From NCBI GenBank assembly GCA_043797545.1, contig JAZDPN010000073.1, positions 1 through 57,523 on the forward strand: a stretch of DNA of 57,523 bases, given 5' to 3'. The DNA is from Patescibacteria group bacterium. GTDB taxonomy: Bacteria > Patescibacteriota > Gracilibacteria > JAHISY01. A program made the translations under genes and the position numbers. The notes under the pieces are model-generated. The model saw nothing but the letters and a program-made list of their open reading frames with translations, had not been told where the DNA came from and did no database searches. This document shows positions 2,721-45,092 of this stretch, piece by piece; position 1 is the stretch's first letter; every line of letters begins with the position of its first letter.

Positions 2721-3761
2721 ATGAATTTAATTTTGAATGTCAACCAAAATTTTGCGAATTTTTTGGACGAGTCGCGGCGCGACATTTGGCGCTACGCGAA
2801 AATTTTGAGCGATTCGAAAATTGTGAATTTTGTCGACCCGCTGCAAAAAGATTTCACGAAAATCGAGCGAATAGGGGATTTTTGGGTGAAACGGGAAGAC
2901 GAGAGCGCAGTCGGCTCACACAAATTTCGTGCACTCGCGTTCCAAATTTCCCAACTTCTAGAAGCGAAAATCGACCGTGCTGTCCTCTCAAGCTCTGGTA
3001 ATGCTGCAATCGCGGCCTCGCAAATCTTGCCAGAAAATACGAATTTGAAGCTCTTTGTGTTTTTGTCGAAGAAGACACCACCCGCCAAGTTGGCCGGGCT
3101 GAAATTTTCGAAAAACCTTGTTCCGATCCTCTCCGAGCGCCCATTGCGGATGGCGAAATATGCCGCGAAACACTTTGATTTAAGAGATTTACGTCCGTCA
3201 GTCGATCCTAACGCTGCTGTTGGTTTTTGCTCGCTCGGCTTCGAGATTTTCGAGCAAAAACCAGCTATTGAGAATATTTTCAGCTTCGCGACGAGCTTCG
3301 CGAGCGTCCGCGGCATCGCCGAGGCGTTTAAGTTTTTAGTCAAAATCGGTGCTCGGCAAAAAATGCCGAAGATTTTCGCGGTCACCTCGAGTGGAAGGCT
3401 GGCTGGCGAGTTGAGCAGGCAACGAGTAGACACGAGTAGACAAGCAAAAGTTGTCCAGTGGACAGAAGTAGACACAAGTGGACAACGAGTAGCGAAGTCC
3501 GCCGAAGCCTCGGCGAAGGCGGAACAGCTGGTAAATATCTCTGATGCAGAAATTTTGGCGACTCGTCAGAAACTGCCCGAGCTGAAAACTTCGAATGAAG
3601 GTTTGGCGAGTCTCGCCGCCGCCACGAAAATCAAACCGCAAGGGGAGACTTTGGTGATTTTGACGGGACGAGCTTGGCCGGACAAAAATGTTGATCTGGA
3701 TAAATTTGAAGAAGCTGACAATTTTGCAGAAGCTGATAAAATGGTCGCTCGTCATGGCTAA
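2721..3761 (+). CDS. PLP-dependent enzyme, fold type II (TrpB/ThrC/cysteine-synthase-like)
   Basis: Contains the lysine motif ESAVGSHKFRA, the SSSGNAAIAAS segment, and a glycine-poor TSSG loop. Carries repeat copy C in frame. The ATG at 2721 lies 13 bp from the divergent lysW-like start. Confidence 0.6.
   Translation: MNLILNVNQNFANFLDESRRDIWRYAKILSDSKIVNFVDPLQKDFTKIERIGDFWVKREDESAVGSHKFRALAFQISQLLEAKIDRAVLSSSGNAAIAASQILPENTNLKLFVFLSKKTPPAKLAGLKFSKNLVPILSERPLRMAKYAAKHFDLRDLRPSVDPNAAVGFCSLGFEIFEQKPAIENIFSFATSFASVRGIAEAFKFLVKIGARQKMPKIFAVTSSGRLAGELSRQRVDTSRQAKVVQWTEVDTSGQRVAKSAEASAKAEQLVNISDAEILATRQKLPELKTSNEGLASLAAATKIKPQGETLVILTGRAWPDKNVDLDKFEEADNFAEADKMVARHG
3425..3527. repeat. Composite repeat copy C (heptamer array, TGTCCAGTGGACA palindrome, hairpin TCCGCCGAAGCCTCGGCGAAGGCGGA)
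   Basis: GTAGACA occurs at 3426, 3436 and 3468, and GTGGACA variants are also present. The hairpin at 3498-3523 differs from 1478-1503 at 2 nt. Translated as SRQRVDTSRQAKVVQWTEVDTSGQRVAKSAEASAKAEQ. Confidence 0.9.
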
Positions 3762-6638: not shown

Positions 6639-7208
6639 ATGCAAATTTCTTACTTTGGCCAGCTCGGCTTTCTTTTGAAAGGATCGGACGCCTCGGTCGC
6701 TCTGGCTCTGCCTGCCGACAAAATCGGGGAAGCCGAAATCGTGATCACCGCGACCGAAGATGAGGTCATCAAGGCTAGCAGCAAACAAACTGTTTTCGAT
6801 TGGCCGGGAGAATACGAATCCAAGGGCGTGAGCGTGGCTCTGATTCCTGTCGGCAAAGACAAACCTTCCCGTATCGCCAAAGTTATCATTGACGGAATCG
6901 CGCTAGTCCATCTCGACGGAGTGAGCGAACCGCTAACCGAAAAGGAAGAAGAAAAGATCGGGAATGTTGATTTGCTTTTAATTTCGATTGGCAAAAATGC
7001 CACTCTCGACGCCAAGCAAATTAAAAATACCATCGAAGCGCTTGAGCCGAAAATCGTAATTCCGATGAATTTCGCGGACGGCGAGGAAAAAGAATTCGCG
7101 AAACAGCTCGGTTTCGGCGAGGCCGAAGCGGAAAACGATTTGAAATTGAAAGCGAGCAGTCTGCCGTCTGACCGGATGGAGCTCAAAATTTTGAGGTCGA
7201 GGAAATAG
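6639..7208 (+). CDS. UPF0173/MBL-fold hydrolase-like protein lacking the HxHxDH metal motif
   Basis: MQISYFGQLGFLLKG..., PGEYESKGV, VDLLLISIG and PKIVIPMNF align with the family pattern. The position of the His motif reads EIVITATEDE. Confidence 0.45.
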   Translation: MQISYFGQLGFLLKGSDASVALALPADKIGEAEIVITATEDEVIKASSKQTVFDWPGEYESKGVSVALIPVGKDKPSRIAKVIIDGIALVHLDGVSEPLTEKEEEKIGNVDLLLISIGKNATLDAKQIKNTIEALEPKIVIPMNFADGEEKEFAKQLGFGEAEAENDLKLKASSLPSDRMELKILRSRK

Positions 7209-7296
7209 GGAGTGGGTGAAGATTTTTAACCTACTCTAAAATTCACAAGTGTTTTTGCGTTGCACATTACACATTGATAATTAATAATTGATTCAC

Positions 7297-7371
7297 GGCC
7301 CCGTAGTTCAATGGATAGAACAATTCCGTCCTAAGGAAGAAATGTAGGTTCGATTCCTGCCGGGGCCACCA
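7297..7371 (+). tRNA. tRNA-Arg (anticodon CCT), CCA encoded
   Basis: Hand-folded cloverleaf: acceptor GGCCCCG/CGGGGCC, D stem GTTC/GAAC, anticodon loop GTCCTAA, T arm GTAGG-TTCGATT-CCTGC. Confidence 0.85.
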
Positions 7372-7378
7372 AAATGTT

Positions 7379-7403
7379 CTCCGCTGCAAGCGGAGGTTAT
7401 TTT
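7379..7403 (+). terminator. Intrinsic terminator after tRNA-Arg
   Basis: Stem CTCCGC/GCGGAG with loop TGCAA, followed by GTTATTTT. Confidence 0.6.
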
Positions 7404-7532
7404 GGTGATTGCGGTGGGTGAGAAATACAAAAGCTCGTGCTTTGTTTTTCGAAAAACATTTCGGCGCGCGCCGCCACAAAGTGGCCCCTTCGGGGCGAAA
7501 TAATTTAAAATTCGCACGCGCTCGCAGCGAAT

Positions 7533-7555
7533 TTCGATTCCTGTCGGGGCCACCA
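7533..7555 (+). repeat. Direct copy of the 3' 23 nt of tRNA-Arg(CCT)
   Basis: TTCGATTCCTGTCGGGGCCACCA versus 7349-7371 TTCGATTCCTGCCGGGGCCACCA (22 of 23). The upstream sequence cannot form a T stem, so this is not a second tRNA. Confidence 0.9.
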
Positions 7556-7556
7556 A

Positions 7557-9032
7557 TTAAAAATTCAATTCGCGAATCGCCTGCCAGCGCCCAACCGACC
7601 AAATCGGACCTCGAGTAATTGTTTGAATTTGGGTAAAAAGTTTTTGCAACTGCGAATCAGTCAGTAAATTTTTATTTTGTGAAAGCGAATCGAGATAGTC
7701 GGTCGGCAGCTCGCGCGCGAAATGCCCGATACGCCAATTCGGCGTGGCGGGAAGGCGCGCGAGAAATGCATCAGTGAGCGCATATTCATCGATGATCACG
7801 CAATCACGTGGCGCAAGAAATCCGTAAATGCCGACATTTGCGAACGATCGAATGCCGTGACATTCGCCCTGGTTTTTCGGCGCCCAAGAGTGATTTTCGA
7901 TACCGCCGAGACGAATCATCGCGAACAAAGAATTTTCTGATTCGAAAAATTCGCGCTCATCCGCGATGCCGAAATCGTTGATTGTTTTTGCCGCGATCGG
8001 ACTGCCCGAAAAATTAATTCCCCAGCCGACAACCGCGAACAGCAAAATAATTTTGGCGAATTTTTTGAGCTGAACAAGGTCGGGGATTTGTCCGAGCAAA
8101 ATTACCGAGCCGAAAAAAAGTGGGGCGAGGAAACGACCGGACATGAAGTCGCCGCCGATTTTGAGAATATAAATTAGATACAAACACAGTCCCGCCGCGA
8201 GGCCGAGCAGTTTTTTCGAGCGAGAAACGAGCGACCAAACGAACGCAGCGAAAATCGTCGCGAGCGTGAGCGGATCGCGAATGAAAGAGTCGATTAAATA
8301 TTTGCCGCCCTGCGCGAGCAAAGCGAGCGGCGCGATTCCGGTCGCGAGTTTCGCGTAAAAAGTATTTGGGAAAGGAAAACCGAAATAAATCAGCGCGAAA
8401 AATTCCCACAGAATGAGTGGCGTGTAGCCGAGCAAAATTTGACCGAACGCTTTTGCTTTGTGCGGCGCGGCGAAAAATTCCCAGAGCAAGACCGGAACGA
8501 AAAGCAAAATCGTGTCGAGGCGATTGACCGTGGCGAGTGCGGCGACGAAGGAAAGCGCAAGCAGTTTTCGCGGCGAATCTTTTTGGAAAAAAATGAAAAC
8601 GAAAAGCGCGAACAAAAGATTGGTCAGCGGATTTTCGAGGCCGGAAGTCGCGAAATCGAGAAAAGCGTGCGAAAAAAACAGAAGCGCGAGTACGAAAATT
8701 TTGGCGAAGTCGCGCGAGATTAATTTGCGCAATACGAGCGCGAGCGCGGCGCAGCTCGTCAAAAACGAGACGCTCAAAGTCGTGAAGTACGCTTCGCGGG
8801 TGAGGAAATAAAACGGCGTGAGCAGAAATAACCAAAGCGGGTGAGTGAAAACTTGGACACGCTCGACGACATTCCAGCGCAAGCCGAAACCGTGCACGAA
8901 GTTGTCGATCACGCGCAAGGTAATAAATGCGTCGTCGGAGATCCACGCTCGCGCGACGAGACGGACAAGTAAAAACCCGAGCAAAATTCCGATCCCGATT
9001 CGCAGCCAAGTTCGTTTTTTGAGTGCGTTCAT
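7557..9032 (-). CDS. GT-C fold membrane glycosyltransferase (ArnT/PMT/arabinofuranosyltransferase-like)
   Basis: About 12 TM helices and an N-terminal loop motif WISDDAFITLR typical of GT-C enzymes. Confidence 0.55.
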   Translation of the reverse strand: MNALKKRTWLRIGIGILLGFLLVRLVARAWISDDAFITLRVIDNFVHGFGLRWNVVERVQVFTHPLWLFLLTPFYFLTREAYFTTLSVSFLTSCAALALVLRKLISRDFAKIFVLALLFFSHAFLDFATSGLENPLTNLLFALFVFIFFQKDSPRKLLALSFVAALATVNRLDTILLFVPVLLWEFFAAPHKAKAFGQILLGYTPLILWEFFALIYFGFPFPNTFYAKLATGIAPLALLAQGGKYLIDSFIRDPLTLATIFAAFVWSLVSRSKKLLGLAAGLCLYLIYILKIGGDFMSGRFLAPLFFGSVILLGQIPDLVQLKKFAKIILLFAVVGWGINFSGSPIAAKTINDFGIADEREFFESENSLFAMIRLGGIENHSWAPKNQGECHGIRSFANVGIYGFLAPRDCVIIDEYALTDAFLARLPATPNWRIGHFARELPTDYLDSLSQNKNLLTDSQLQKLFTQIQTITRGPIWSVGRWQAIRELNF

Positions 9033-9060
9033 CGCGAAAATTTTACGCTAAAATCGCGCC

Positions 9061-9543
9061 GTGAAAATTGCGCTTATTTCAGATTCGCACGGCGCGCTCG
9101 ATCGACTCGAGGAAGTTTTGCACAATTTCGACACGGCTGGGATTCGCGAAATCGTGCACGCGGGGGATTTCGCGCTTGGAGAAATCGTGGAACTTTTGTC
9201 TAATTTTCCACAGTTGAGTTTCCGGATCGCACGGGGAAACTGCGATGTTGATACTGAGAAAATTTTGGCAATTGCGAATTTACCGAATGTCGAACTCGAG
9301 GAAATTTTGGAGTTCGAGCTCGGCGGACGGCGCATCGCGGTCGCGCATCGGATTCGAGATTTAGCCAATTCAGACGCGCCAATCTTGATTTCTGGACACA
9401 CGCATATTCCGAGCGCGAAAGCGGTGAATGGAAAATTATTTTTGAATCCGGGCTCGCTGATGGATGACGGCGGCTATTTCATTTTGGATTTGGCGAATTT
9501 AATTGTTGAGCGCAAGCTTTTTTCTGACAAAGCTCTGGCTTAA
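9061..9543 (+). CDS. YfcE/MJ0936-family metallophosphoesterase
   Basis: Motifs ISDSHG, HAGDF, GNCD and SGHTH. GTG start. Confidence 0.75.
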   Translation: MKIALISDSHGALDRLEEVLHNFDTAGIREIVHAGDFALGEIVELLSNFPQLSFRIARGNCDVDTEKILAIANLPNVELEEILEFELGGRRIAVAHRIRDLANSDAPILISGHTHIPSAKAVNGKLFLNPGSLMDDGGYFILDLANLIVERKLFSDKALA

Positions 9544-10142: not shown

Positions 10143-10523
10143 ATGCAGTACAAAAGATATCGCTCGCTCAAAATCGGACTTGTGATGCTACTCGCTGCGA
10201 CTGTCGGTGGCTTCGTCAGTCAGGGAAATTTTGTGATTCCGCTGGTCGCTTTTGCGATCGCCGCAGGAACAATTTTTCTAGTCAGTCGTCACGTTGATTC
10301 CGTTCAAAATGATGAGCGCATCGAAAAAATCGGCGGCAAAGCGGCGCGCTGGATACTCGCGATTTTTGCAATCGGAGGCGCGATCGCGAGCATCGTCCTC
10401 ACCGCGCTCGCCAAAGATAATCCGATTTATCAAATTCCGGCCTATATTTTTTCGGGTCTAGTTTGGTTTGTCTTGGTTGGACATCTGGTTTTGTTTTATT
10501 ATTTCAATCGCAAAGGCGAATGA
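10143..10523 (+). CDS. DUF2178-like membrane protein
   Basis: Four TM helices. Translationally coupled (ATGA) to a small XRE regulator, which is the usual DUF2178 context. Confidence 0.4.
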
Positions 10524-10714
10524 AAAACCGGATCAAAATTTTTCGCGCACAGTTTGATTTGACACAGAACGCACTCGCGGAAAAAGTCGGCGTGCGTCGC
10601 GAGACGATCGTTTTTCTCGAACAAGGAAAATACAATCCCTCGCTCGAGCTCGCTTTTCGCATCGCGAAAGTTTTTGGCGAACCGCTGGAAAATGTTTTTA
10701 TTTGGGAAAAATAA
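10520..10714 (+). CDS. XRE-family HTH transcriptional regulator (YozG-like)
   Basis: The sequence [48 protein letters not shown] is a canonical Cro/C1 HTH. Confidence 0.8.
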
Positions 10715-10717
10715 ATC

Positions 10718-10740
10718 TGGCGGAGGGAGAGAGATTCGAA
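10718..10740 (-). repeat. Direct copy of the 3' 23 nt of tRNA-Ser(GGA)
   Basis: TGGCGGAGGGAGAGAGATTCGAA versus 10881-10903 TGGCGGAGGGAGGGGGATTCGAA (21 of 23), in the same orientation as the tRNA. Confidence 0.9.
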
Positions 10741-10880
10741 GCTGGCTTCAAGTTCTGTTTTTAATTTGAGATTGTCGGCGGCGCGCGCCGAAATGGTTCG
10801 CGAAATACGGAACGCGAGCTACCAGGTGTCTCACCCACTCCCCGCGCCAAAAAATTCGCCTGTGCGGGGGCAATTTTTCG

Positions 10881-10970
10881 TGGCGGAGGGAGGGGGATTC
10901 GAACCCCCGAGGCAGTTGCCCGCCTACCCGCTTTCCAAGCGAGCGCACTCGGCCACTATGCGATCCCTCC
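10881..10970 (-). tRNA. tRNA-Ser (anticodon GGA), long variable arm, CCA encoded
   Basis: The reverse complement folds with acceptor GGAGGGA/TCCCTCC, anticodon loop TTGGAAA, an extra arm GGCGGGCAACTGCC, and T arm GGGGG-TTCGAAT-CCCCC. Confidence 0.85.
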
Positions 10971-11034
10971 GTTTTAGCGAAATTTCAAAACTGGGCGAGG
11001 CAACCCTCACCCCGATTTGCGAAGTGAGGTTGAA

Positions 11035-11247
11035 TTATTTTTCGGAGGAGGACTCCGCCGCCACATTCTTTTCTTTGGTCGGCTTTTGCAAAGTCCGCAG
11101 ACAGCTCGTGCAAATCACGACTTTCACACCGGAAAATTTCTTCGAAATTAAATTCGGGAGAAAGCGGCGGCGTGTGCGACGTTTGGAGTGGGAAACTTGA
11201 TTTCCGACTCCTGGTTTTTTGCCACAAAGATTGCAAACTTTACTCAT
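11035..11247 (-). CDS. rpmB: 50S ribosomal protein L28
   Basis: [33 protein letters not shown] is the conserved L28 N-terminus. Confidence 0.9.
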
Positions 11248-13144: not shown

Positions 13145-13189
13145 AAAAATCCGCCAATTTTAGCAGAAATATAAGCTAAAAACAATTCG

Positions 13190-13232
13190 TTTTATTTCAA
13201 ATACTCATCCCACGCCTTGATCGGCAACTCGA
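13190..13232. repeat. Direct repeat, left copy: duplicate of the last 13 codons, stop codon and 3 downstream nt of carB
   Basis: GTTTTATTTCAAATACTCATCCCACGCCTTGATCGGCAACTCGA matches 14560-14602 with one mismatch. Confidence 0.9.
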
Positions 13233-13280
13233 CTAACAATCCATCACTTTACTCGAACGTATTTCAATTTTTTATAAAAT

Positions 13281-13475
13281 ATGTTAAAATGCGCAGAAAC
13301 AAAAACTATGAAATCCAAACAAAAATCACTCCTGCCGCTTGCGGCTGAGATGCTGCAAACGCTCGACGCGGCACAAGAAAAAGAATTGGCACGCAAAAAA
13401 ATACTCGCGAAACGAACCGAGGAACTTTCTTCGCGAATCGAAGATTTCGAACAAACACAAAAACTTTTGGGTTAA
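13281..13475 (+). CDS. Small coiled-coil protein (64 aa), cassette gene 1
   Basis: ORF in an AT-rich segment. Its stop overlaps the next start (TAATG). Confidence 0.4.
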   Translation: MLKCAETKTMKSKQKSLLPLAAEMLQTLDAAQEKELARKKILAKRTEELSSRIEDFEQTQKLLG

Positions 13476-14560
13476 TGTCAATCGAAAACAAAGACCGACC
13501 ACCTGTTGCCAAAACAGAAACTGAGCTTGAGCGTTTAATGCCCGAGTACGCCGAAATGCGTGATGCGATTATTAATGTAGAGGTGGCCGCAAACAAAATG
13601 GAGCTGCAAAAAAGACAAGCCGACGATATTAACAATGAAATCGTTGATCGTCTGTCAACAATTAAAGTGAAAATAGATCAGCTCGCCAAAAAATATCCCG
13701 ACAACGATAGTCTGCGGATACTTATGGATATGTACGAAGATATTAGTCAGGATTTTATTTACAGTAGGAAAACTCGGGTTGACACAAGTTTGCAAAAAAG
13801 ATTGGCGGAAGTGCAAAAATCTGTCGTCGATGCTGGAATTACTACCGTTCCCTCGGAAAATATTGATAACCCGAAAACAAAAGAATTGGTCGCAAAGATG
13901 CAGCAACTCGGAATCCCGATTGAACGAGTCACAACTCGCCCAAACGCAGACCGAACTGTGATTCTGATAGTCTGGGCCCATCCCAATCCCGGGATGAATG
14001 AGGAAGTAAGAAAGGAGTTCGGCATCTTTGAAAGTCAAAACAAAGTTAATGATTATATTGCCAAATTATCTCAAGCTGGAATTTCAAATCATGTACTTAC
14101 CGAGGGAATTCCGGCCAATATAAGTCCTGAGCTTAAGGCAAAAGTCTTAGCTGAAATGGCCCAAAATGGGTTTCCGTTTATAAATTTAACAAATATTTCT
14201 ATTGAGGGTGTCGAAAACAAAGCTTTTTTGCTAAAAACAGCAACCGATTTAAGTTCAGCTAATTACCAAATCAGGGCAACTATCAACAATATAGTCATGG
14301 CTCACAACATCGAAAATTCTATGCGGTCTGGAGAGGTTTCGATCGCCGTCATGGGCGCGGCTCACGAATTTGAAATCGATCAGAGCGAACATCAATTGTC
14401 TTACTCGCAGGCCACCTCTTTCGAAGCTAATGCTAATGTGATTGTCATAAATACGGCAAGGGAGTTCTACGAAGCTACTCGCGACCCTAAAAAAATGGAG
14501 CTCATGAAGCAAGCAGCAGCCAATTTTCAGGCAGGGATTAAAGAACAGTTTTCGAAATAG
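13475..14560 (+). CDS. Hypothetical protein (361 aa), cassette gene 2
   Basis: Long AT-rich ORF with an N-terminal coiled coil. The C-terminal half carries VWAHPNP and VMGAAHEFE motifs. I can assign no family with confidence. Confidence 0.55.
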   Translation: MSIENKDRPPVAKTETELERLMPEYAEMRDAIINVEVAANKMELQKRQADDINNEIVDRLSTIKVKIDQLAKKYPDNDSLRILMDMYEDISQDFIYSRKTRVDTSLQKRLAEVQKSVVDAGITTVPSENIDNPKTKELVAKMQQLGIPIERVTTRPNADRTVILIVWAHPNPGMNEEVRKEFGIFESQNKVNDYIAKLSQAGISNHVLTEGIPANISPELKAKVLAEMAQNGFPFINLTNISIEGVENKAFLLKTATDLSSANYQIRATINNIVMAHNIENSMRSGEVSIAVMGAAHEFEIDQSEHQLSYSQATSFEANANVIVINTAREFYEATRDPKKMELMKQAAANFQAGIKEQFSK

Positions 14561-14602
14561 TTTTATTTCAAATACTCATCCCACGCCTTGATCGGCAGCT
14601 CG
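14560..14602. repeat. Direct repeat, right copy (functional 3' end of carB)
   Basis: See 13190-13232. Confidence 0.9.
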
Positions 14603-17600
14603 AGATCGCGATATTGCTCGAGCGAATCGACAACCAATTTCGCAACCTGCGGATTGACGAACAACGGAATGCCGAAGTCCGTCGCGCGGCGGCGAATCAG
14701 ATAGCCGTTCGTCATTTCCTCGGCTTGATAATTTTTCGGAATATTCACGACCATGCCAATTTGTTTTTGGGCAAAAAGGTCGAGGACGTTTGGCTTCTGC
14801 TTCTCGAGCGGAAAATGCACCAAAGTATTCGCCACACCGTTGTCGGTCAAAAAGCGAGAAGTGCCCGGCGTCGCGAAAAGTTTGAAACCCATCGCGATCA
14901 GTTTTTGCGCGGAGGGGAGGAAGGCCAATTTCGAATCAATCGATCCAGTCGAGATGAGAATATTTTTCTTCGGCAAACGGAAGCCGACCGCGATCTGCGC
15001 TTTGAGAAAAGCTTCGTGCAAATTCTCGCCGAAACACGCGACTTCGCCGGTCGACGCCATCTCGACGCCGAGCGTCGGATCCGCACCTTTGAGCCGCGAG
15101 AAAGAAAACTGCGCGGCTTTCACGCCGACGTGATTGAGGTCGAGAGTTTGGTAGTTTTGTTTCCGCCACGCTTTCGGCGCGACTTTGCCGAGCATCGCCT
15201 CGATCGCGATCGCGATGAAATTGTGCCCGGCAGTTTTGGAAACGAACGGGAACGAGCGGCTAGCTCGTAAATTTAACTCTATGACCGCGACACGATTTTC
15301 TTTCGCGAGAAATTGAATGTTGAATGGGCCAGTGATTTTGAGTTCCGCGGCCAATTTTTTCGCGATAATTTTGATGCGTTTAATCGTCTCGAGATAAGTT
15401 TTTTGCGGCGGCAAAACCAAAGTCGCGTCGCCCGAGTGGACGCCAGCATTTTCGACATGCTCGGAAACCGCGAAAATTACGAGCTTCCCGTCGGCGGCGA
15501 CTCCGTCGAAATCGATTTCGCGCGCGCCTTCTTCAAATTTCGAAATCACGACGGGCGCGTCGGTTGAAATTTTCGTGGCCTTGGCCAGATAATTTTGGAG
15601 CTGCTCGGCGGTGAACGCGACGGACATCGCCGCGCCGGAGAGAACATAACTCGGACGAACGAGCACCGGGTAGCCGACTTTTTTCGCGAATGACATCGCG
15701 TCAGAATTTTGGGTGAACTCGGACCACTGCGGTTGGTCGATCTCGAGCGAATCGCAAAGCTGCGAGAATTTTTCGCGCGACTCGGCGCGGTCGATCGAAA
15801 CCGGGGAAGTTCCGAAAATCGGAACTTTTTCCGCCGCCAATTTTCCGACGAGATTATTCGGAATTTGTCCGCCCGTCGAGACGACGACGCCTTTCGGTTT
15901 CGTGAAATCGAGAATGTCGAGGACGCGCTCGACGGAAAGCTCGTCGAAATAAAGTTGGTCGCAGGAGTCGTAATCCGTCGAAACAGTCTCGGGATTGTAA
16001 TTGATCATGATTGTCTCGAAACCGTTTTTCGCTAAAGTTTGGACGGCGGAGACACAGCACCAATCGAATTCGACGGACGAACCAATGCAGTACGCGCCGC
16101 TTCCCAAAACAACCGCGCGGGGCCGTAGCCCGCCGAAGCTCGAAGAGCGAAGGCCGGGTTTTTTGGAGAATTTAATTTCGTCGCTCGTATCGCCGTGGTA
16201 GGTCAAATAAAGATAATTTGTTTTCGCGGGAAACTCCGCAGCAAAAGTGTCGATTTTTTTGACGACCGGGAGAATACCGAATTTTTTGCGGCGTTTGCGA
16301 ATTTCCAATTCTCCGACGCCCGCACGCCACGCGATTTGCGAATCGGAAAAGCCCAATTTTTTTGCACGGGAAAACTCGTCTTTCGACAATTTTCCTTTTT
16401 GGGCTTTGAGAATGTCGCGCTCGAAGTCGGCGATGTTTTTGCATTTTTCGAGAAACCACTCGTCGATGCCGGTCAGTTTTTTAATTTTTGCGACCGACCA
16501 ACCGTCGCGCAGCGCGCGCGCGATCGCGAAAATTCTTTCCGGCGTCGGCTTGGAAATAACTTTTTCGAGCGAGTCGAATTTGAAATTGGCGTGACTGAAA
16601 CCGTACGCGCCGACCTGCAACATGCGCAGCGCTTTTTGCAAAACTTCCTCGAACGAGCGACCGATCGCCATCACTTCGCCGACCGATTTCATTTCGCTGC
16701 CAATCTCGGCGGAAACTTTACGGAATTTTTGGAGATCCCAGCGCGGGATTTTGAGAACGAGATAATCGAGCGCCGGTTCGAAACACGCGGTCGTGTTGCC
16801 GGTCACCGCATTCGGGACTTCGTCGAGTCTTTTGCCGAGCGCGAGTTTCGCAGCGACATGCGCGAGCGGATAGCCGGTCGCTTTCGACGCGAGCGCGGAG
16901 GAGCGCGACAAGCGCGCATTTACTTCGATCACACGATAATCAATTTTGTGCGGATCGGTCGGATTCGGATGCAGCGCGTATTGAATATTGCATTCGCCGA
17001 CGATGCCGAGGTGTCGAATCACGCGAATCCCGATTTCGCGGAGCGCGTGATATTCGTAATTGTTCAAAGTTTGCGACGGCGCGACGACGATCGACTCGCC
17101 GGTGTGAATGCCGAGCGGATCGAAATTTTCCATGTTACAAACCGTCAAACAGGTGTCGGCGGAATCGCGAACGACTTCGTATTCGATTTCTTTCCAGCCG
17201 CGCAAATCTTCTTCGATCAAAACTTGCGGCGACGCCGAGAACGCGACTTCGAGTAATTTTTTCAGCTCGGCAGGATTTTGAGCGAAGCCCGAGCCTTTGC
17301 CACCGAGCGCGTATGCTGCGCGAACAATCACCGGGAAACCAATTTTTTTGGCGGCGGCGATTCCTTCAGCTTCGTTGCGCACGGCTTGCGCACGCGCGGT
17401 CGTCACTCCAATTTCGTTTAATTTTTTGACGAAAAGTTCGCGGTCTTCGGTCGCCTCGATCGCAGAAATTTGCGTGCCGAGAACTCGAACTTTGTGTTTT
17501 TTGAAAACACCGCGCTTTTCCAGCTCAACTCCGCAATTGAGCGCGGTCTGACCACCGAAAGCTAGCAAAATTCCGTCCGGCTTTTCTTTTTCGATGATCC

Positions 17601-17838
17601 GCTCGACAAAGCGGGGGGTGACCGGGAGGAAATAAACGCGGTCCGCCACCCCGGCTGAAGTTTGATTCGTAGCAATGTTCGGATTGACCAAAATCGTTTC
17701 GATTTTTTCTTCTTTCAGGGCTTTGATGGCTTGACTACCAGAATAATCGAATTCCCCTGCCTCGCCGATTTTTAGAGCGCCAGAACCGAGTACGAGAACC
17801 TTTCGAACTTTCTCCGAATAGGCCTTTTTGAGCTTCAT
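14563..17838 (-). CDS. carB: Carbamoyl-phosphate synthase large subunit
   Basis: Duplicated ATP-grasp architecture: KVLVLGSGALKIGEAGEFDYSG and a second VVLGSGAYCIGSSVEFDWCCV. The C-terminal domain is MGS-like. Length 1091 aa. Confidence 0.9.
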   Translation of the reverse strand: MKLKKAYSEKVRKVLVLGSGALKIGEAGEFDYSGSQAIKALKEEKIETILVNPNIATNQTSAGVADRVYFLPVTPRFVERIIEKEKPDGILLAFGGQTALNCGVELEKRGVFKKHKVRVLGTQISAIEATEDRELFVKKLNEIGVTTARAQAVRNEAEGIAAAKKIGFPVIVRAAYALGGKGSGFAQNPAELKKLLEVAFSASPQVLIEEDLRGWKEIEYEVVRDSADTCLTVCNMENFDPLGIHTGESIVVAPSQTLNNYEYHALREIGIRVIRHLGIVGECNIQYALHPNPTDPHKIDYRVIEVNARLSRSSALASKATGYPLAHVAAKLALGKRLDEVPNAVTGNTTACFEPALDYLVLKIPRWDLQKFRKVSAEIGSEMKSVGEVMAIGRSFEEVLQKALRMLQVGAYGFSHANFKFDSLEKVISKPTPERIFAIARALRDGWSVAKIKKLTGIDEWFLEKCKNIADFERDILKAQKGKLSKDEFSRAKKLGFSDSQIAWRAGVGELEIRKRRKKFGILPVVKKIDTFAAEFPAKTNYLYLTYHGDTSDEIKFSKKPGLRSSSFGGLRPRAVVLGSGAYCIGSSVEFDWCCVSAVQTLAKNGFETIMINYNPETVSTDYDSCDQLYFDELSVERVLDILDFTKPKGVVVSTGGQIPNNLVGKLAAEKVPIFGTSPVSIDRAESREKFSQLCDSLEIDQPQWSEFTQNSDAMSFAKKVGYPVLVRPSYVLSGAAMSVAFTAEQLQNYLAKATKISTDAPVVISKFEEGAREIDFDGVAADGKLVIFAVSEHVENAGVHSGDATLVLPPQKTYLETIKRIKIIAKKLAAELKITGPFNIQFLAKENRVAVIELNLRASRSFPFVSKTAGHNFIAIAIEAMLGKVAPKAWRKQNYQTLDLNHVGVKAAQFSFSRLKGADPTLGVEMASTGEVACFGENLHEAFLKAQIAVGFRLPKKNILISTGSIDSKLAFLPSAQKLIAMGFKLFATPGTSRFLTDNGVANTLVHFPLEKQKPNVLDLFAQKQIGMVVNIPKNYQAEEMTNGYLIRRRATDFGIPLFVNPQVAKLVVDSLEQYRDLELPIKAWDEYLK
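16119..16158. repeat. GC-rich hairpin element related to the murD/PLP hairpins, inside the carB inter-half linker
   Basis: GGGGCCGTAGCCCGCCGAAGCTCGAAGAGCGAAGGCCGGG shares CCGTAGCC..GCCGAAGC..GCGAAGGC with 1868-1896 and 1478-1503. It encodes GLRSSSFGGLRP just before the second GSG motif. Confidence 0.5.
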
Positions 17839-17993
17839 CTGGTGGATTTTAGCGAATTTTTGGGGAAATTCCATAACTTGACAAAAAAACACGATAATTT
17901 CAATAAATGTCTATTTTCATTGAAAAACAAGCCCGATTCTGCTAAAATACCCAGATTCCTTTTCTAAAGGGAGCAAGTTTAAAAAAAATAAAA

Positions 17994-22019: not shown

Positions 22020-22577
22020 ATGTCCGCCCAAAAAGATTTTTATTCGATTACCCGCGAGGAAGCCGCTGAAAAATTGGGTATTTCGACACGCACGCTCGAC
22101 CGCTATTTGAAGCGCGGAAAATTGAAATTCAAACTCTCGCCGAGTCGGCAAGTTTTGATTCACGCCCAGGATTTGGAAAGGGTCGCGAAAATTTTGGCGA
22201 AAATTCCTGCGCCAAAAAAGGTCAGCCCGAAAGAAAAAACTTTTGCGGCCTCGGCCGAGGCCGAAGCTTTTGAGATCCCAACCGAGGCCGTCGAGGAAAA
22301 AATTTTTCGCGAGCTGTACGAGGAGGCGAATAAGGATTTAAAAGCGAAACAGGAAAAACTTGAAGCAGCGAGCTTCCGCGTCGGTCAGCTCGAGGCGCAG
22401 CTCAAAAGCTCAGTTCCTTTGCTTGAACACAAACAAAAAGAACAGGAGATGCATAGTGAAAATTCACGCCTTAAGGAAAAACTCGTCGGGGCCATCCTGA
22501 AGAGTTGGGTTTTCCTCGGCATAGCCATATTCGCGACGATCGTCGCAGTCGTTTTGGGTTTCTTGAATTATCTGTAA
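22020..22577 (+). CDS. HTH (excisionase/MerR-like) - coiled coil - C-terminal TM anchor protein
   Basis: ITREEAAEKLGISTRTLDRYLKRGKL is an HTH_17-type motif. It is followed by a long coiled coil and a terminal hydrophobic helix. Confidence 0.55.
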   Translation: MSAQKDFYSITREEAAEKLGISTRTLDRYLKRGKLKFKLSPSRQVLIHAQDLERVAKILAKIPAPKKVSPKEKTFAASAEAEAFEIPTEAVEEKIFRELYEEANKDLKAKQEKLEAASFRVGQLEAQLKSSVPLLEHKQKEQEMHSENSRLKEKLVGAILKSWVFLGIAIFATIVAVVLGFLNYL

Positions 22578-40978: not shown

Positions 40979-42390
40979 AAACTGATTTTCTCGTCGTCGG
41001 CTCTGGAATCGCCGGACTCACTTCGGCCTTATTCCTGGCGAAAAAGGGCAATGTGCTGATCGCAACGAAAAAAAATTTACTCGAGTCGTCGTCGCGCTTT
41101 GCACAAGCTGGCGTCGCTGCCGTGCGCAATTTCAAGTGGGATTCGTTCGACGAACATTTCGCCGACACGCTCGTCGCCGGCTGCCAAGTCAATGACCGAA
41201 AGGCGACGCGCTTTTTGGTCGAAAATGCGCCGAAATTGGTCGACTGGCTTGAGTCGGAAATCGGCGTGAAATTCGCGAAAGAGCCGACACGCGAAGCGGC
41301 GCACTCTCACTCGCGCGTATGGAACACGAACGATTCGACTGGCGAAACGATCGAAAAAGCGCTCGCGCGAAAAGTTCGCGCAAATCGGAGAATTCGCGTT
41401 TTGGAAAAAACGACTTTACTAGATTTGATTTTGGAAAAAGGAATTTGCCGCGGTGCGTGGCTACTGCGAAACGGAAAAGTTGAATCTGTTTTCGCAAGCA
41501 AGGTAATTCTCGCAACAGGTGGTTTCGGGCAGCTTTTCGCGAAATCGACAAATCCGGAGGTTTCAGTCGGCGACGGGATCGCGGCAGCCGCACGCGCCGG
41601 CGCAAAATTAAAAGATTTGGAATTTATTCAATTTCACCCGACCGCACTCGTCGGCAAACAAACGCGGCTGACTTTGTTTTCGGAAAGTCTCCGCGGGGAA
41701 GGCGCGGTACTGCGCAACTCGCGCGGCGAAAGATTTTTGCCGAGTTATCATCCCGCCGCCGAACTCGCCCCGCGCGATGTAGTCGCGCGCGCGATTTTCG
41801 CGGAATTGAAAAATGGTCCGGTTTTTCTCGACTTCACGCGCGCGAGCGCAAAGTTCTTATCAAATCGCTTTCCGTTAATTTGGGGCGAAGTGAAGAAAGC
41901 CGGCTTCGACTTGTCGAAAGATTTGATCCCAATTTTCCCGGTCGCGCATTACTCCTGCGGCGGTGTCGCAGTAAATTTGCGTGGCGAAACGTCAGTGTCG
42001 AATTTGCTCGCGGTCGGCGAAGTCGCACGTACCGGATTGCATGGCGCGAACCGACTCGCTTCGAATTCGCTCGCTGAGGCGCTCGTTTTCGGAAAATTTT
42101 TGGGCGAAACGGCGCAACTTTCGAAAGTTGACGAATTTAAAGTCAGGCCGCCAAAATTTACTTTCAGCCTGAAAGAAGATTTGAAAATCCGGCAAAAAGT
42201 CCGGGGAATAATGTGGGAAAAGGTCGGAATCGTCCGCACGAAAAAAGGACTCGCGGCGGCAGTCGCCGAGCTCGGGAAGCTGCGACCAAAAAGTTTAGTT
42301 GCGCGAAATGCAGTGCTCGTTGCGTCGCTCGTCGCGAATTCAGCAAAAAAACGAACAAAAAGCCTCGGGACGCATTTTTTGGCGAAATAA
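40975..42390 (+). CDS. nadB: L-aspartate oxidase
   Basis: FAD motif DFLVVGSGIAGL plus the RFAQAGVAAV, HPT and HYSCGGV motifs. Confidence 0.85.
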   Translation: MKTDFLVVGSGIAGLTSALFLAKKGNVLIATKKNLLESSSRFAQAGVAAVRNFKWDSFDEHFADTLVAGCQVNDRKATRFLVENAPKLVDWLESEIGVKFAKEPTREAAHSHSRVWNTNDSTGETIEKALARKVRANRRIRVLEKTTLLDLILEKGICRGAWLLRNGKVESVFASKVILATGGFGQLFAKSTNPEVSVGDGIAAAARAGAKLKDLEFIQFHPTALVGKQTRLTLFSESLRGEGAVLRNSRGERFLPSYHPAAELAPRDVVARAIFAELKNGPVFLDFTRASAKFLSNRFPLIWGEVKKAGFDLSKDLIPIFPVAHYSCGGVAVNLRGETSVSNLLAVGEVARTGLHGANRLASNSLAEALVFGKFLGETAQLSKVDEFKVRPPKFTFSLKEDLKIRQKVRGIMWEKVGIVRTKKGLAAAVAELGKLRPKSLVARNAVLVASLVANSAKKRTKSLGTHFLAK

Positions 42391-42399
42391 TCGCAAAAA

Positions 42400-42417
42400 T
42401 GGTGCGCCCGGCAGGAT
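42400..42417 (-). repeat. Direct copy of the 3' 18 nt of tRNA-Arg(TCG)
   Basis: TGGTGCGCCCGGCAGGAT is identical to 42593-42610, in the same orientation. Confidence 0.9.
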
Positions 42418-42555
42418 AAATTCGCCATGGGCGAATTGGGCTGCTGCGTCGCTCGCGCACGACAAACAGCTACGCTGTTGTCGCGACTCGCTATCCTCGC
42501 AGAACGAACCTCGCTTGCTTCGCTGCGCGGCAAATTTTCACCACGCCCGACAACC

Positions 42556-42582
42556 ACGCAAAACCTGCCCGCTTCGCGGGTC
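42556..42582 (-). terminator. Intrinsic terminator after tRNA-Arg(TCG)
   Basis: On the minus strand: CCCGC-GAA-GCGGG followed by CAGGTTTT. Confidence 0.5.
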
Positions 42583-42592
42583 AGAACTTGCG

Positions 42593-42669
42593 TGGTGCGC
42601 CCGGCAGGATTCGAACCTGCAACCCCCGGTTCCGAAGACCAGTGCTCTATCCAGTTGAGCCACGGGCGC
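42593..42669 (-). tRNA. tRNA-Arg (anticodon TCG), CCA encoded
   Basis: The reverse complement folds with acceptor GCGCCCG/CGGGCGC, D arm GCTCAACTGGATAGAGC, anticodon loop CTTCGGA, and T arm GCAGG-TTCGAAT-CCTGC. Confidence 0.85.
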
Positions 42670-42779
42670 GCGCCGCGATTTTAGCATTTTTACTGGGAAA
42701 TAATCCTTGATTTTGGCAAGTCTTCGTGATTGAGGAAAATGCTTAAAAATGCTAAAATGTCCGGATTTAAAAGCCAAAA

Positions 42780-45092
42780 ATGCAAACAAAAATCATCGCG
42801 AGCCTGCTCGGAATGATCAGCTTAATTTGCTTGGCAAATCCGGCTTTGGCAAGCCAAGTGCCTGCTGGATACGTCCTCGTCCCAGCCGATGTTTTCTTCG
42901 GACAAGGCTCAAGTGTTATCGCTCCGAACACCACTGTGGCCGAGGTTTCGACTAGCAAATCGAGTGTCCGGGTCAACGACGAAATTGGTTATGTCGGTGA
43001 AAAATACTCAGTCGCAACCGTCACTCTGCGCGACGAGGCGAATCGACCAGTCGCCGGGGAAAGCGTAACCCTGATTTCTTCGCGGGCAACCGACTCAATC
43101 AAGGCTTTGCAAAACGAAACAAATTCCAATGGTGAAGCCTCTTTCCAGGTTTTAGCCAAAGGAGAAGGTGTTAGCTCTCTGACAGCTCTCGCGGGCAATC
43201 AAACAATTCTCGAACGACCACGCATTGTCTTTTTGCAGAAGGCCGGAGGCATCGGTGGAAACCTCTTACGAGCTGACGTCGTGACGGCCAGCGCACCGAC
43301 AAAAAAAACGGTTGCAGCAACGCTAACTACTAATCAGGTTTTTGCGGATTTCCCCAATACAATCAAGGCCGACACACCAACCGACATTACGGTCACAATC
43401 AAAGATGCTGACGGGAAAATCGTAGAGGATTTTCGCGGAACGATTAATTTCCAGAGTTCCGACTCGCTTGCGATTCTGCCCAAAGAATATACGTTCGGCG
43501 AACTCGACCGTGGTTCACATAATTTTGCTAATGCTGTCACCATGCTGACGGCAGGCGACCAAACAATCACAATTGCTGGCGACACAAATCTGGGTTCGCA
43601 GGAGGTTCCTGTGAAAGTCTTGGACGGAGTGGGCGGAGTCGCGACACCCGTAATCACCAGCCCGACTGACGGCGCACTTTTGAATAAGACAGTCTTGCTC
43701 GAAGGACTCGCTCCGGTAAACTCAAATCTTGTTGTTTTCACGGATGGCCAATTTTTGAAAAATGGGCAATCTGACGGCGACGGTAAGTTTTTGATCGATG
43801 CTGACTTAGTAGACGGACAGCACGAAATTACGGTCGGTGTTTTGAAAAACGACAGCTCTGTCGGAGCTGTCTCGGAAGCTATTAGGGTTAATCTTGATAA
43901 AACCAAGCCTGTTTTGGAAGATGTTTCTCTCGACCCGGGCAACCGCGTCGTGAGCGGCCAGCTCGTGAAAATAACCGTTAAAAGTGAGTCTGCTCTCGCC
44001 GGAGCGCAGTTCCGGATTGAGAATGAATCCGATGATTTGATTGAGTCATCGGTCGCCGGAACATACACTGGCGAATTCACCGCTCCGGCCGACGGTGCTT
44101 ATTTCGTAAGCGTCGAGTTGACTGATAAGGCCGGGAATATTGGCTCTTTCCCGGAAGCAACCAGCATCCTTGTCGAAGTACCGATTACAATTGAAAAAGT
44201 CGAAACTACACCCCGCGATGGTCGAGTGGATTTACGCTGGGATGCACCGGCGAATACGGCTAGCATCGCGCATTACGAAATTTTTTACGGGACGGATAAA
44301 GAACAGCTCGACAAGAAATTCACGACGACAGATAATCGCACGGCCTGGTTTATTGATAACCTAAACAACAACACAAAATACTTTTTTCGCGTCGTTTCGG
44401 TCGACGCTGACAGCAAGCAAAATGGTGGCAGCGAGATTGTCCAGGCGACTCCGACCGCTATGGTCGCAGCAACCGGTTGTGATTCAAAAATTATTTTAAG
44501 CTGGCAGACGCCGACTAATTCCAAGATCGCTAATTATCGACTCGACTACGGAGTCGCAAGCGGTGATTACGCCGAGAGTCGATTACTTTCGGGTGGCAAA
44601 AAATTAAAACAGTGGGAGGTGCGTGATCTCGTGAATGGTTCACCTTATTTTTTCGCTTTGCGCGGAGTCGATGACTTCGGCGAAGTCGTCGCCGATATGG
44701 GTGAGGTCAGCGCGACTCCGACCGCGGGCGAGGTCTGCGGCTCGATCGAACCAATTCAGCTTTTTCAGAAAAGAGATGCTGCTGGCAACATTTTCCTGGT
44801 TTGGAACCCTGTTGCCGGTGCGACCAGTTATCGGATTTACGCCGGGACGCAGCCAAATGTCTTTGATCTACCAACAGTCGAGGTCGCCGCAAATGCTTTT
44901 CAGCCTAAAGGGCTCGCCAAAAACACTGATTACTATTTTGCGGTAAGCGCGGTTTTTTCCGGAGTCCACAACGCCGCGACCCTGTCAAACGTCACCAAGG
45001 TCGAGGTCGGGCCAGCCGAAATAATTTTCATCTCCCTGATCGCGGCCTTCGTGGGCAGCCTCCTGATTAGGCGAAAATTTTCCCGGAGCTAA
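42780..45092 (+). CDS. Large surface protein with Ig-like (Big) and fibronectin type III repeats and a C-terminal TM anchor
   Basis: Signal peptide, invasin-like SVTLISSRATD...NGEASFQV, several FN3-like W..P modules, and a terminal hydrophobic helix plus RRKFSRS. Confidence 0.65.
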   Translation: MQTKIIASLLGMISLICLANPALASQVPAGYVLVPADVFFGQGSSVIAPNTTVAEVSTSKSSVRVNDEIGYVGEKYSVATVTLRDEANRPVAGESVTLISSRATDSIKALQNETNSNGEASFQVLAKGEGVSSLTALAGNQTILERPRIVFLQKAGGIGGNLLRADVVTASAPTKKTVAATLTTNQVFADFPNTIKADTPTDITVTIKDADGKIVEDFRGTINFQSSDSLAILPKEYTFGELDRGSHNFANAVTMLTAGDQTITIAGDTNLGSQEVPVKVLDGVGGVATPVITSPTDGALLNKTVLLEGLAPVNSNLVVFTDGQFLKNGQSDGDGKFLIDADLVDGQHEITVGVLKNDSSVGAVSEAIRVNLDKTKPVLEDVSLDPGNRVVSGQLVKITVKSESALAGAQFRIENESDDLIESSVAGTYTGEFTAPADGAYFVSVELTDKAGNIGSFPEATSILVEVPITIEKVETTPRDGRVDLRWDAPANTASIAHYEIFYGTDKEQLDKKFTTTDNRTAWFIDNLNNNTKYFFRVVSVDADSKQNGGSEIVQATPTAMVAATGCDSKIILSWQTPTNSKIANYRLDYGVASGDYAESRLLSGGKKLKQWEVRDLVNGSPYFFALRGVDDFGEVVADMGEVSATPTAGEVCGSIEPIQLFQKRDAAGNIFLVWNPVAGATSYRIYAGTQPNVFDLPTVEVAANAFQPKGLAKNTDYYFAVSAVFSGVHNAATLSNVTKVEVGPAEIIFISLIAAFVGSLLIRRKFSRS

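Follow-up and report, generated by a model that had tools for sequence, protein, structure and literature searches.

The 57.5-kb window analyzed here (the whole of contig JAZDPN010000073.1, assembly GCA_043797545.1, positions 1 to 57,523) comes from a Patescibacteria group bacterium, which protein searches place in a Peribacteria/Gracilibacteria-like clade of the candidate phyla radiation (CPR) with graded relatives. It contains three tRNA genes, tRNA-Ser(GGA), tRNA-Arg(CCT) and tRNA-Arg(TCG), all of them called by ARAGORN and confirmed by the Rfam tRNA model; at gathering score, Rfam recovered only these tRNAs and one 5S rRNA from the whole window. Each of the three tRNAs is followed by a short insert that ends in a second, orphan copy of the 3' end of that same tRNA. 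These inserts, referred to as cassettes, are the subject of this analysis.

The intact tRNA-Ser(GGA) gene is located on the minus strand at 10881-10970 (Rfam tRNA model, 52.3 bits). Its last 23 nt, running from T54 to the CCA end, form the proximal repeat (10881-10903, minus strand; repeat family D2): the sequence TTCGAATCCCCCTCCCTCCGCCA (10903-10881) reappears downstream and on the same strand as TTCGAATCTCTCTCCCTCCGCCA (10740-10718). This orphan or distal copy of tRNA positions 54-76 (10718-10740, minus strand) is identical in 21 of 23 positions, and both mismatches are C to T changes within the 3' strand of the T-stem. The two repeats are separated by a spacer of 140 nt (10741-10880, minus strand), and on its outer side the orphan copy lies 3 nt from the TAA stop codon (10712-10714) of an XRE-type open reading frame (ORF; 10463-10714, plus strand). 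A previous reading of this DNA, made from the letters alone and called the sequence-only reading below, had pointed out the recurrence of the 23 nt beside the stop of the XRE gene together with the length of the spacer, and these observations were borne out.

When up to three mismatches were allowed, the Ser 23-mer had just two matches in the window, so that the orphan copy is the sole second match, with 0 expected from 100 dinucleotide shuffles. With the T-loop left out, the other 17 nt still matched in 15 of 17 positions and were unique in the window. Compared with the 3' ends of the three tRNAs, the Ser orphan copy matched its own tRNA in 21 of 23 positions and the two others in 13 each, and in the complete cross-match matrix every orphan copy of the window matched its own tRNA best. 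Shuffles, T-loop-free test and matrix together rule out chance or a T-loop artefact as the source of the repeats; the sequence-only reading had asked whether the repeats are better than chance matches to the conserved T-loop, and they do reach well past it.

Several parts can be distinguished within the Ser spacer, all of them on the minus strand. Directly behind the tRNA, the trailer (10846-10880) was found in a terminator scan to contain a hairpin resembling an intrinsic terminator (stem 10856-10873) followed by a U-tract. The A-tract and the U-tract lengthen the stem of this terminator into the CCA end of the tRNA, and the minimum free energy fold pairs CUCCGCCA... with ...UGGCGCGGGGAG. The segment TGGCGCGGGGAGTGGG (10834-10849) repeats the last 16 nt of tRNA-Ser imperfectly and in inverted orientation; this anti-3'-end segment is able to pair with either the proximal or the distal copy (RNAduplex, -27.6 kcal/mol, with 0 of 300 shuffles as low), and in the RNAalifold consensus it takes part in the long-range helix. 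The core (10777-10838), delimited by alignments and motif searches, comprises GTGGGTGAGA, a hairpin in which two pairs are compensatory, and the 19-mer CATTTCGGCGCGCGCCGCC with an internal palindrome of 12 nt. Finally, a junction hairpin, TTGAAGC-CA-GCTTCGA (10736-10751), was recognized by reading the sequence and corresponds to columns 123-138 of the RNAalifold consensus; the T-loop sequence of the orphan copy makes up its 3' strand.

The same arrangement is found at tRNA-Arg(CCT) (7297-7371, plus strand), whose proximal repeat (7349-7372; repeat family D11) recurs as an orphan copy at 7533-7556 (plus strand, 23 of 24 positions identical) that abuts the stop codon (7557-7559) of a convergent glycosyltransferase gene. 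The spacer of 161 nt (7372-7532, plus strand) consists of a terminator (7378-7396), a core (7414-7475), an extra hairpin (7476-7498) and a junction hairpin (7508-7535). Its core shares with that of the Ser cassette the collinear layout GTGGGTGAGA-N8-AGCTCG-N19-CATTTCGGCGCGCGCCGCC (10777-10838, minus strand, and 7414-7475, plus strand), the 19-mer being perfect, and each of the core motifs is confined to these two sites in the window, where 0.06-0.10 occurrences would be expected by chance. The difference in length between the two spacers, 140 versus 161 nt, amounts to the one extra hairpin of 23 nt. The two cassettes are thus homologous, as the sequence-only reading had maintained, and its further claim of one and the same type of event at another tRNA species agrees with the identical succession of tRNA, terminator, core, junction hairpin and orphan copy beginning at T54.

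The third gene, tRNA-Arg(TCG) (42593-42669, minus strand), shows the same layout as the other two. Its spacer of 175 nt (42418-42592, minus strand) belongs to a different sequence family, and the orphan copy (42400-42417, minus strand) consists of the last 18 nt of the tRNA, identical in 18 of 18 positions and 9 nt away from the stop codon of NadB. The sequence-only reading, which knew of the first two loci, had proposed to inspect the other tRNA genes for such repeats; within the window, the sole remaining one proved to be affected as well, and the layout is not restricted to the loci first described. All three tRNAs of the window (3/3) therefore carry an insert plus an orphan 3' copy, with at least two unrelated spacer families involved and cassette sizes, measured from repeat to repeat, of 163, 184 and 193 bp.

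Common to the three loci is the order of tRNA, A-tract/GC hairpin/U-tract, spacer core, short junction hairpin and orphan copy, with a convergent stop codon 0-9 nt beyond. The A-tract, GC hairpin and U-tract behind the tRNAs resemble an intrinsic terminator whose stem reaches into the CCA end, and counterparts of the Ser junction hairpin are present in both other window cassettes as well as in the locus L150 of a relative. The block of identity starts exactly at T54 in tRNA-Ser and tRNA-Arg(CCT) and at T-loop position 59 in tRNA-Arg(TCG), and runs to the CCA end in every case. The repeat thus starts in the T-loop at all three loci, which, like the anticodon loop, is a canonical crossover sublocation, and reaches the 3' end of the gene.

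Two side observations concern the cassettes as such. The extra hairpin of the Arg(CCT) spacer, GCCAC[A/G]AAGTGGCCCCTTCGGGGCGAAA (23-30 nt, window 7471-7500), is an insertion relative to the Ser spacer and recurs with 97% identity in a non-tRNA intergenic region of L152/L153 (17702-17731); it may be a small mobile hairpin. In addition, mechanical ORFs of 66-144 amino acids extend across the tRNAs and cassettes (7267-7602, 7308-7556, 10748-10948, 10766-11200 and 42299-42684) and may be reported by gene callers as spurious hypothetical proteins; an ORF of 164 amino acids called over tRNA-Arg(CCT) in L004 resembles them.

Comparison with the relatives identifies the cassettes as insertions. No cassette is found at tRNA-Ser(GGA) in L001/L005, L150 and L152/L153, nor at tRNA-Arg(CCT) in L004 and L152, and the tRNA-Arg(TCG) site is empty in L146 and L147-149, whose NadB is 79-82% identical. 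The closest relative at the latter locus, L145 (NadB 92%), holds the same cassette as the window. At the Ser locus, the contig of the closest relative (GCA_043799575.1, JAZDNQ01, contig 26; L006) is collinear with the window and ends 2 nt past the CCA of tRNA-Ser, these two bases being TT in L006 and CG in the window. The genes just downstream of the tRNAs vary among the window, L001, L004, L150, L152 and the P0246 contig, so that the 3' flanks of these tRNAs can be regarded as insertion hot spots in the clade. One relative shows a repeated structure: downstream of its tRNA-Arg(CCT) (3235-3309), L150 contains two identical units of 60 nt in tandem (3115-3234, minus strand), each composed of a 41-nt hairpin spacer, from a family unrelated to those of the window, and a 19-nt copy of the tRNA 3' end. 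Such an array would be the expected product of repeated integration or of unequal exchange between att-like (attachment site-like) repeats.

As a control, 133 tRNAs from 120 mostly unrelated metagenome loci, obtained from a scan with the Ser 3' end, were examined. Only one orphan copy was found among them, a plain tandem duplication in L012; the other high-scoring downstream matches were neighbouring tRNA-Ser genes. The L012 case (8880-9110, soil metagenome contig) is a true tandem duplication in which a 114-nt unit, composed of the tRNA-Ser(TGA) 3' end and its trailer, is present twice.

The T-stem of the Ser locus gives an indication of the direction of the event. The functional tRNA-Ser of the window has the T-stem GGGGG/CCCCC, the orphan copy reads CTCTC, and the tRNA-Ser genes of L006 and L152 have GAGGG/CCCTC. 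The orphan copy hence carries T64 like the genes of these relatives, that is, the ancestral allele, whereas the functional gene of the window has C64 paired with G50. This fits a functional end brought by the cassette, and the Ser orphan copy seems to represent the original 3' end of the gene in displaced form. The argument concerns one site, however, which is polymorphic in the clade, and it also needs a compensatory A50G change.

A parallel is provided by carB, the gene for the large subunit of carbamoyl phosphate synthetase (14563-17892, minus strand). Its 3' end is present as a direct repeat of 46-49 nt (13184-13232 and 14555-14603) flanking a 1.3-kb insert (13233-14554) with 41% GC and an ORF of 361 amino acids (13475-14560). 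The insert is missing from L006, and the distal carB repeat carries the L006 allele. This genome thus demonstrably gains DNA through insertions in which the 3' end of the target gene is rebuilt. The 361-amino-acid ORF had no match in Pfam, PHROG or NCBIfam, and the idea that it might be a hidden recombinase was given up, as it matches no family and there is no sequence link between the insert and the tRNA cassettes.

The Arg(TCG) locus can be compared directly with the occupied site of L145. Window and L145 are identical in 18 of 18 positions of the orphan copy, 172 of 175 of the spacer, 77 of 77 of the tRNA and 107 of 110 of the region upstream of the tRNA. The corresponding values are 86.6% for all positions of NadB, 72% for its third codon positions and 56-82% for other intergenic regions. 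A block of about 400 bp (window 42394-42804) is therefore 97-100% identical and represents the most conserved stretch in 22 kb of synteny; it takes in the orphan copy, the spacer, tRNA-Arg(TCG) with the promoter region upstream and, of the next gene, the first ~15 nt. The identity collapses sharply at the outer end of the orphan copy, which is the exact edge of the block. Under the rate of the NadB third positions, a spacer identity of 172/175 has a probability of P ~6e-21. The upstream region is only 72-79% identical to that of L146/L147 and normally evolves about as fast as NadB, so its 97% identity in the L145 pair is equally anomalous. The simplest reading of this pattern would be that the whole occupied allele of ~400 bp was recently exchanged, with one end point fixed by the orphan fragment.

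Taking these observations together, we suggest that the cassettes are att-type (Campbell-like) insertions of miniature, non-autonomous elements without an integrase, a reading to which we assign a probability of roughly 0.55. The sequence-only reading had spoken of an event only, and in specifying it as a probable insertion of the att type we go beyond it. Each tRNA gene would have been hit by a non-coding cassette of 163-193 bp, counting one repeat, that entered at the T-loop. Such a cassette would bring its own copy of T54 to CCA with an intrinsic terminator behind it, and recombination within this copy would rebuild the tRNA (the equivalent of attL) and shift the original 3' end some 140-175 nt downstream, where it would persist as the orphan copy (the equivalent of attR) beside the convergent gene. 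The proximal repeat of tRNA-Ser (10881-10903) would accordingly be a replacement 3' end delivered by the cassette. The Ser(GGA) and Arg(CCT) cassettes would represent one family, defined by the core of ~62 nt, and Arg(TCG) another. Since the cassettes encode no protein, they would have to be non-autonomous, and two routes of spread may be considered. Along the first, a recombinase encoded elsewhere, most plausibly a tyrosine integrase of the T-loop class, would mobilize the cassettes; along the second, occupied alleles would pass between lineages by being taken up as DNA and recombined homologously, the orphan fragment providing a short arm of homology. The duplication, its boundary in the T-loop, the status as insertions relative to the relatives, the homology of the cassettes and the ancestral allele of the orphan copy are observed directly, while the enzyme, a mobility of the small unit itself and the route of spread are inferred.

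The topology, the T-loop boundary, the empty sites, the ancestral orphan allele and the parallel carB insertion all agree with the established principle by which genomic islands integrate into tRNA genes (tDNAs): the insert completes the interrupted gene, and its far end is recognizable by the displaced fragment (PMC4383910). In the Islander collection, 3760 of 3919 islands have a 3' tDNA fragment and 1836 an attP site in the T-stem region; candidates below 2 kb or without an integrase are dropped there, and the islands range from 2 to 200 kb (PMC4383910). The window loci resemble such tDNA islands and prophages, which use tyrosine integrases (sublocation classes of Williams 2002), in the intact regenerated tRNA, the 3' fragment in direct orientation, the block of identity from the T-loop to the 3' end, the 3' end and terminator supplied by the insert, and the empty sites in relatives. 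They differ in that the insert measures 0.16-0.19 kb instead of 2-200 kb and lacks an integrase or any ORF, and in that all three tRNAs within 57 kb are occupied. Unusual here are thus the gene-less insert of the size of an attP site, the two collinear members in different tRNA species and the occupation of every tRNA in 57 kb.

Integrase-less derivatives of integrative elements are known as cis-mobilizable elements (CIMEs); they are flanked by att sites, have no recombination module and are presumed to rely on the recombinase of another element. Known CIMEs are kilobases long and carry genes. The window cassettes share with them the att-like flanking repeats and the lack of a recombination module, but have about the size of the attP site alone, and no helper element is known. 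Miniature inverted-repeat and palindrome-associated transposable elements (MITEs and PATEs), derivatives of DDE or HUH transposons, are similar to the cassettes in being small, non-coding, multi-copy, hairpin-rich and, in concept, non-autonomous. A cassette, however, has no terminal inverted repeats and targets a defined position of a tRNA gene, and the duplication is specific for that tRNA and 18-24 nt long, in contrast to a target site duplication of 2-10 bp.

Several points weigh against a site-specific mini-element. A free circle of 163-193 bp would be sterically unfavourable, and integration alone explains neither the inverted 3'-end copy at the Ser locus nor the junction hairpins. A Pfam scan of 40 of the 47 large ORFs of the window recovered no integrase or other recombinase domain. 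Pattern searches for the core, with three blocks in genome contigs and with two blocks in metagenome contigs, gave 0 matches, exact patterns being bound to miss diverged homologues; in viral contigs and phages only chance matches in GC-rich sequences were obtained, and neither the Arg(CCT) nor the Arg(TCG) spacer had a blastn match in phages. As the core was found nowhere else, no autonomous parent is known. Furthermore, the Arg(TCG) spacer could owe its 98% conservation to a function under purifying selection. As to coding content, the spacers (140-175 nt) contain no credible ORF and no trace of an integrase coding sequence. That they might be coding was rejected as well: overlapping ORFs share the motif WVR...HFGARR, yet of the 9 codons that differ in the best shared frame, only 1 is synonymous. 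A protein of 185 amino acids with an excisionase/MerR-type HTH_17 domain and weak PHROG matches to excisionases is encoded at 22020-22577 of the window, with no integrase nearby.

The main rival, improbable in our view, holds that spacer and orphan copy form a selected functional RNA, a structured 3' trailer co-transcribed with the tRNA that might act as a processing guide, a decoy for tRNA 3' ends or a bidirectional terminator/insulator between convergent genes, so that the duplication would be maintained by selection and not be a scar. Functional 3' external transcribed spacers (3'ETS) of tRNAs exist, e.g. 3'ETS-leuZ in E. coli; as in these, a conserved sequence lies directly downstream of the tRNA and could act as an RNA, although we know of no orphan copy of a tRNA end in such systems. 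The contrast between the Arg(TCG) spacer and the third positions of NadB speaks for this explanation, and all three substitutions in that spacer appear to fall on predicted unpaired sites (a bulge, a hairpin loop and one other). RNAalifold predicts for the Ser and Arg(CCT) cassettes a common hairpin with two fully compensatory pairs (AA/UU versus GG/CC) and a long-range helix in which the orphan copy pairs with the stretch behind the terminator. This helix, predicted solely on the tRNA strand, shows covariation with the identity of the tRNA and has G-U pairs on that strand only. The stable Ser anti-3' duplex points in the same direction, as does the conserved 19-mer, which reads as a terminator-like hairpin on the opposite strand; with convergent stop codons 0-9 nt from the orphan copy, a cassette may terminate both transcripts. 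On the other hand, the layout is missing at the same tRNAs in relatives with 79-90% protein identity and therefore does not represent a conserved module of long standing. Homology does not extend to all three spacers, and as regards the anti-3' duplex, the best one of Arg(CCT) lies elsewhere and Arg(TCG) has none, lacking the anti-3' segment. The z-scores of the spacer folds are modest (-1.3 to -3.0) with little difference between the strands, and the spacers have no credible match in Rfam 15 even at E<=10. The equally anomalous upstream region in the L145 pair fits a recent exchange better. Moreover, the covariation, five pairs changed on both sides in the alifold consensus, comes from two sequences only, and we regard the predicted RNA-level structure as a lead, not a finding. 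Known RNA families and ribozymes were likewise discarded as candidates, with no Rfam match apart from one to sX4 that is the tRNA itself.

Next in rank, and likewise unlikely, is the possibility of decayed stumps: ordinary islands or prophages with an integrase would once have occupied these tRNA genes, and deletions would have left of them only the sequence next to attL and attR, so that the small units were never mobile. Such stumps would account equally well for the att-type topology and the T-loop boundary; CPR genomes are streamlined, which makes deletion likely, the 3' flanks of the tRNAs are hot spots of gene turnover in the clade, and viral contigs do bear orphan tRNA 3' fragments as attP. 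The collinear cassettes of Ser and Arg(CCT), with 140 and 161 nt between the repeats, would however require independent deletions sharing both end points, and cassettes of nearly equal size behind different tRNAs argue that the small unit itself propagates, rather than that two large elements decayed independently. The spacers without any trace of integrase coding sequence, the two identical 60-nt units of L150 in tandem and the 98% identity between genomes that are 72% identical at neutral sites are also unexpected for stumps. A purely local origin, in which replication slippage or unequal exchange duplicated the tRNA 3' end without any foreign DNA, is very improbable: the doubled unit of L012 and the array of L150 show that such events occur, but the trailer should then recur after the second copy, whereas the window orphan copies run into a convergent stop within 0-9 nt, and neither a homologous core behind two different tRNAs, nor spacers that are missing from the trailers of relatives, nor a Ser orphan copy with the relatives' allele could be produced in this way.

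Other candidates were rejected on their structure. A group I or group II intron was dropped, since the tRNA is complete, a terminator follows it and the size does not fit. A composite transposon, in which the two cores would be inverted repeats (I1) around 3.3 kb, is contradicted by the enclosed genes, which are syntenic in relatives without cores. Casposon- or CRISPR-type staggered integration, PATEs of the IS200/605 type, retron-like non-coding RNA, bridge or guide RNAs and a primer-binding-site-like (PBS-like) element all lack their defining features here: there are no terminal inverted repeats and no reverse transcriptase, Cas1 or TnpB nearby, and the third cassette has no anti-3' segment.

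If the att-type reading is extended from single loci to the genome, the cassettes could be regarded as 'attP-only' mini-elements, gene-less, tRNA-specific and ~0.16-0.19 kb in size, each with a replacement tRNA tail and a terminator. As the counterparts of MITEs among integrative elements, they would occupy the majority of the tRNA genes in a Peribacteria-like CPR genome and pass from lineage to lineage. We offer this as a tentative proposal only and would sooner expect it to fail than to hold. In the complete Peribacteria genomes, 46 tRNA genes were reported (PMC4736985). Movement would require a recombinase acting in trans, or DNA uptake and recombination with the orphan fragment as homology arm; cassettes already in place may persist through a benefit of their RNA or terminators to the tRNA and the convergent gene.

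By standard practice, genomic islands are delimited with the help of orphan tRNA 3' fragments, and gene-less inserts of ~0.2 kb are invisible to pipelines that drop candidates below 2 kb or without an integrase (PMC4383910). Should the cassettes propagate as units, they would constitute a new minimal class of site-specific mobile DNA and a source of replacement of tRNA 3' ends and terminators in streamlined CPR genomes. With its 98% identity between genomes that have otherwise diverged by 13%, the Arg(TCG) block offers a test case for the spread of tiny non-coding DNA among uncultured lineages, and equally one for functional RNA in the tRNA trailers of these organisms. On the practical side, cassettes may break assemblies, the L006 contig ending 2 nt after tRNA-Ser being an example, and yield spurious ORF calls across tRNAs.

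Some minor observations concern the surroundings of these tRNAs in the relatives. A T-loop-like trailer motif, TTCGA[A/C]T[C/T]GT[C/T]CTC, occurs in L001 (9448-9463) and after both tRNAs in L150; in the Tobar-lake relatives it stands directly after the CCA of tRNA-Ser and, behind tRNA-Arg(CCT), after AGGG. The TT that closes the L006 contig may be the start of this motif. Just upstream of tRNA-Ser(GGA), L006 contains a GIY-YIG nuclease gene of ~300 nt (~6675-6995) flanked by a 19-nt duplication of the tRNA 5' end (AAACGGAGGGATCGCATAG); here the insertion hit the 5' portion of the tRNA gene. GIY-YIG genes flank tRNA-Ser also in L150 and L153. Finally, the window carries a repeat family (222-254, 1433-1513 and 3411-3533) in which AGTAGACA is abundant and a GTCCGCCGAAGCC...GGCGGAAC hairpin comes next. 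One copy of the AGTAGACA family lies in frame within a Mur-ligase-like gene (893-2554) and adds ~27 amino acids after the P-loop, where the relatives are shorter.

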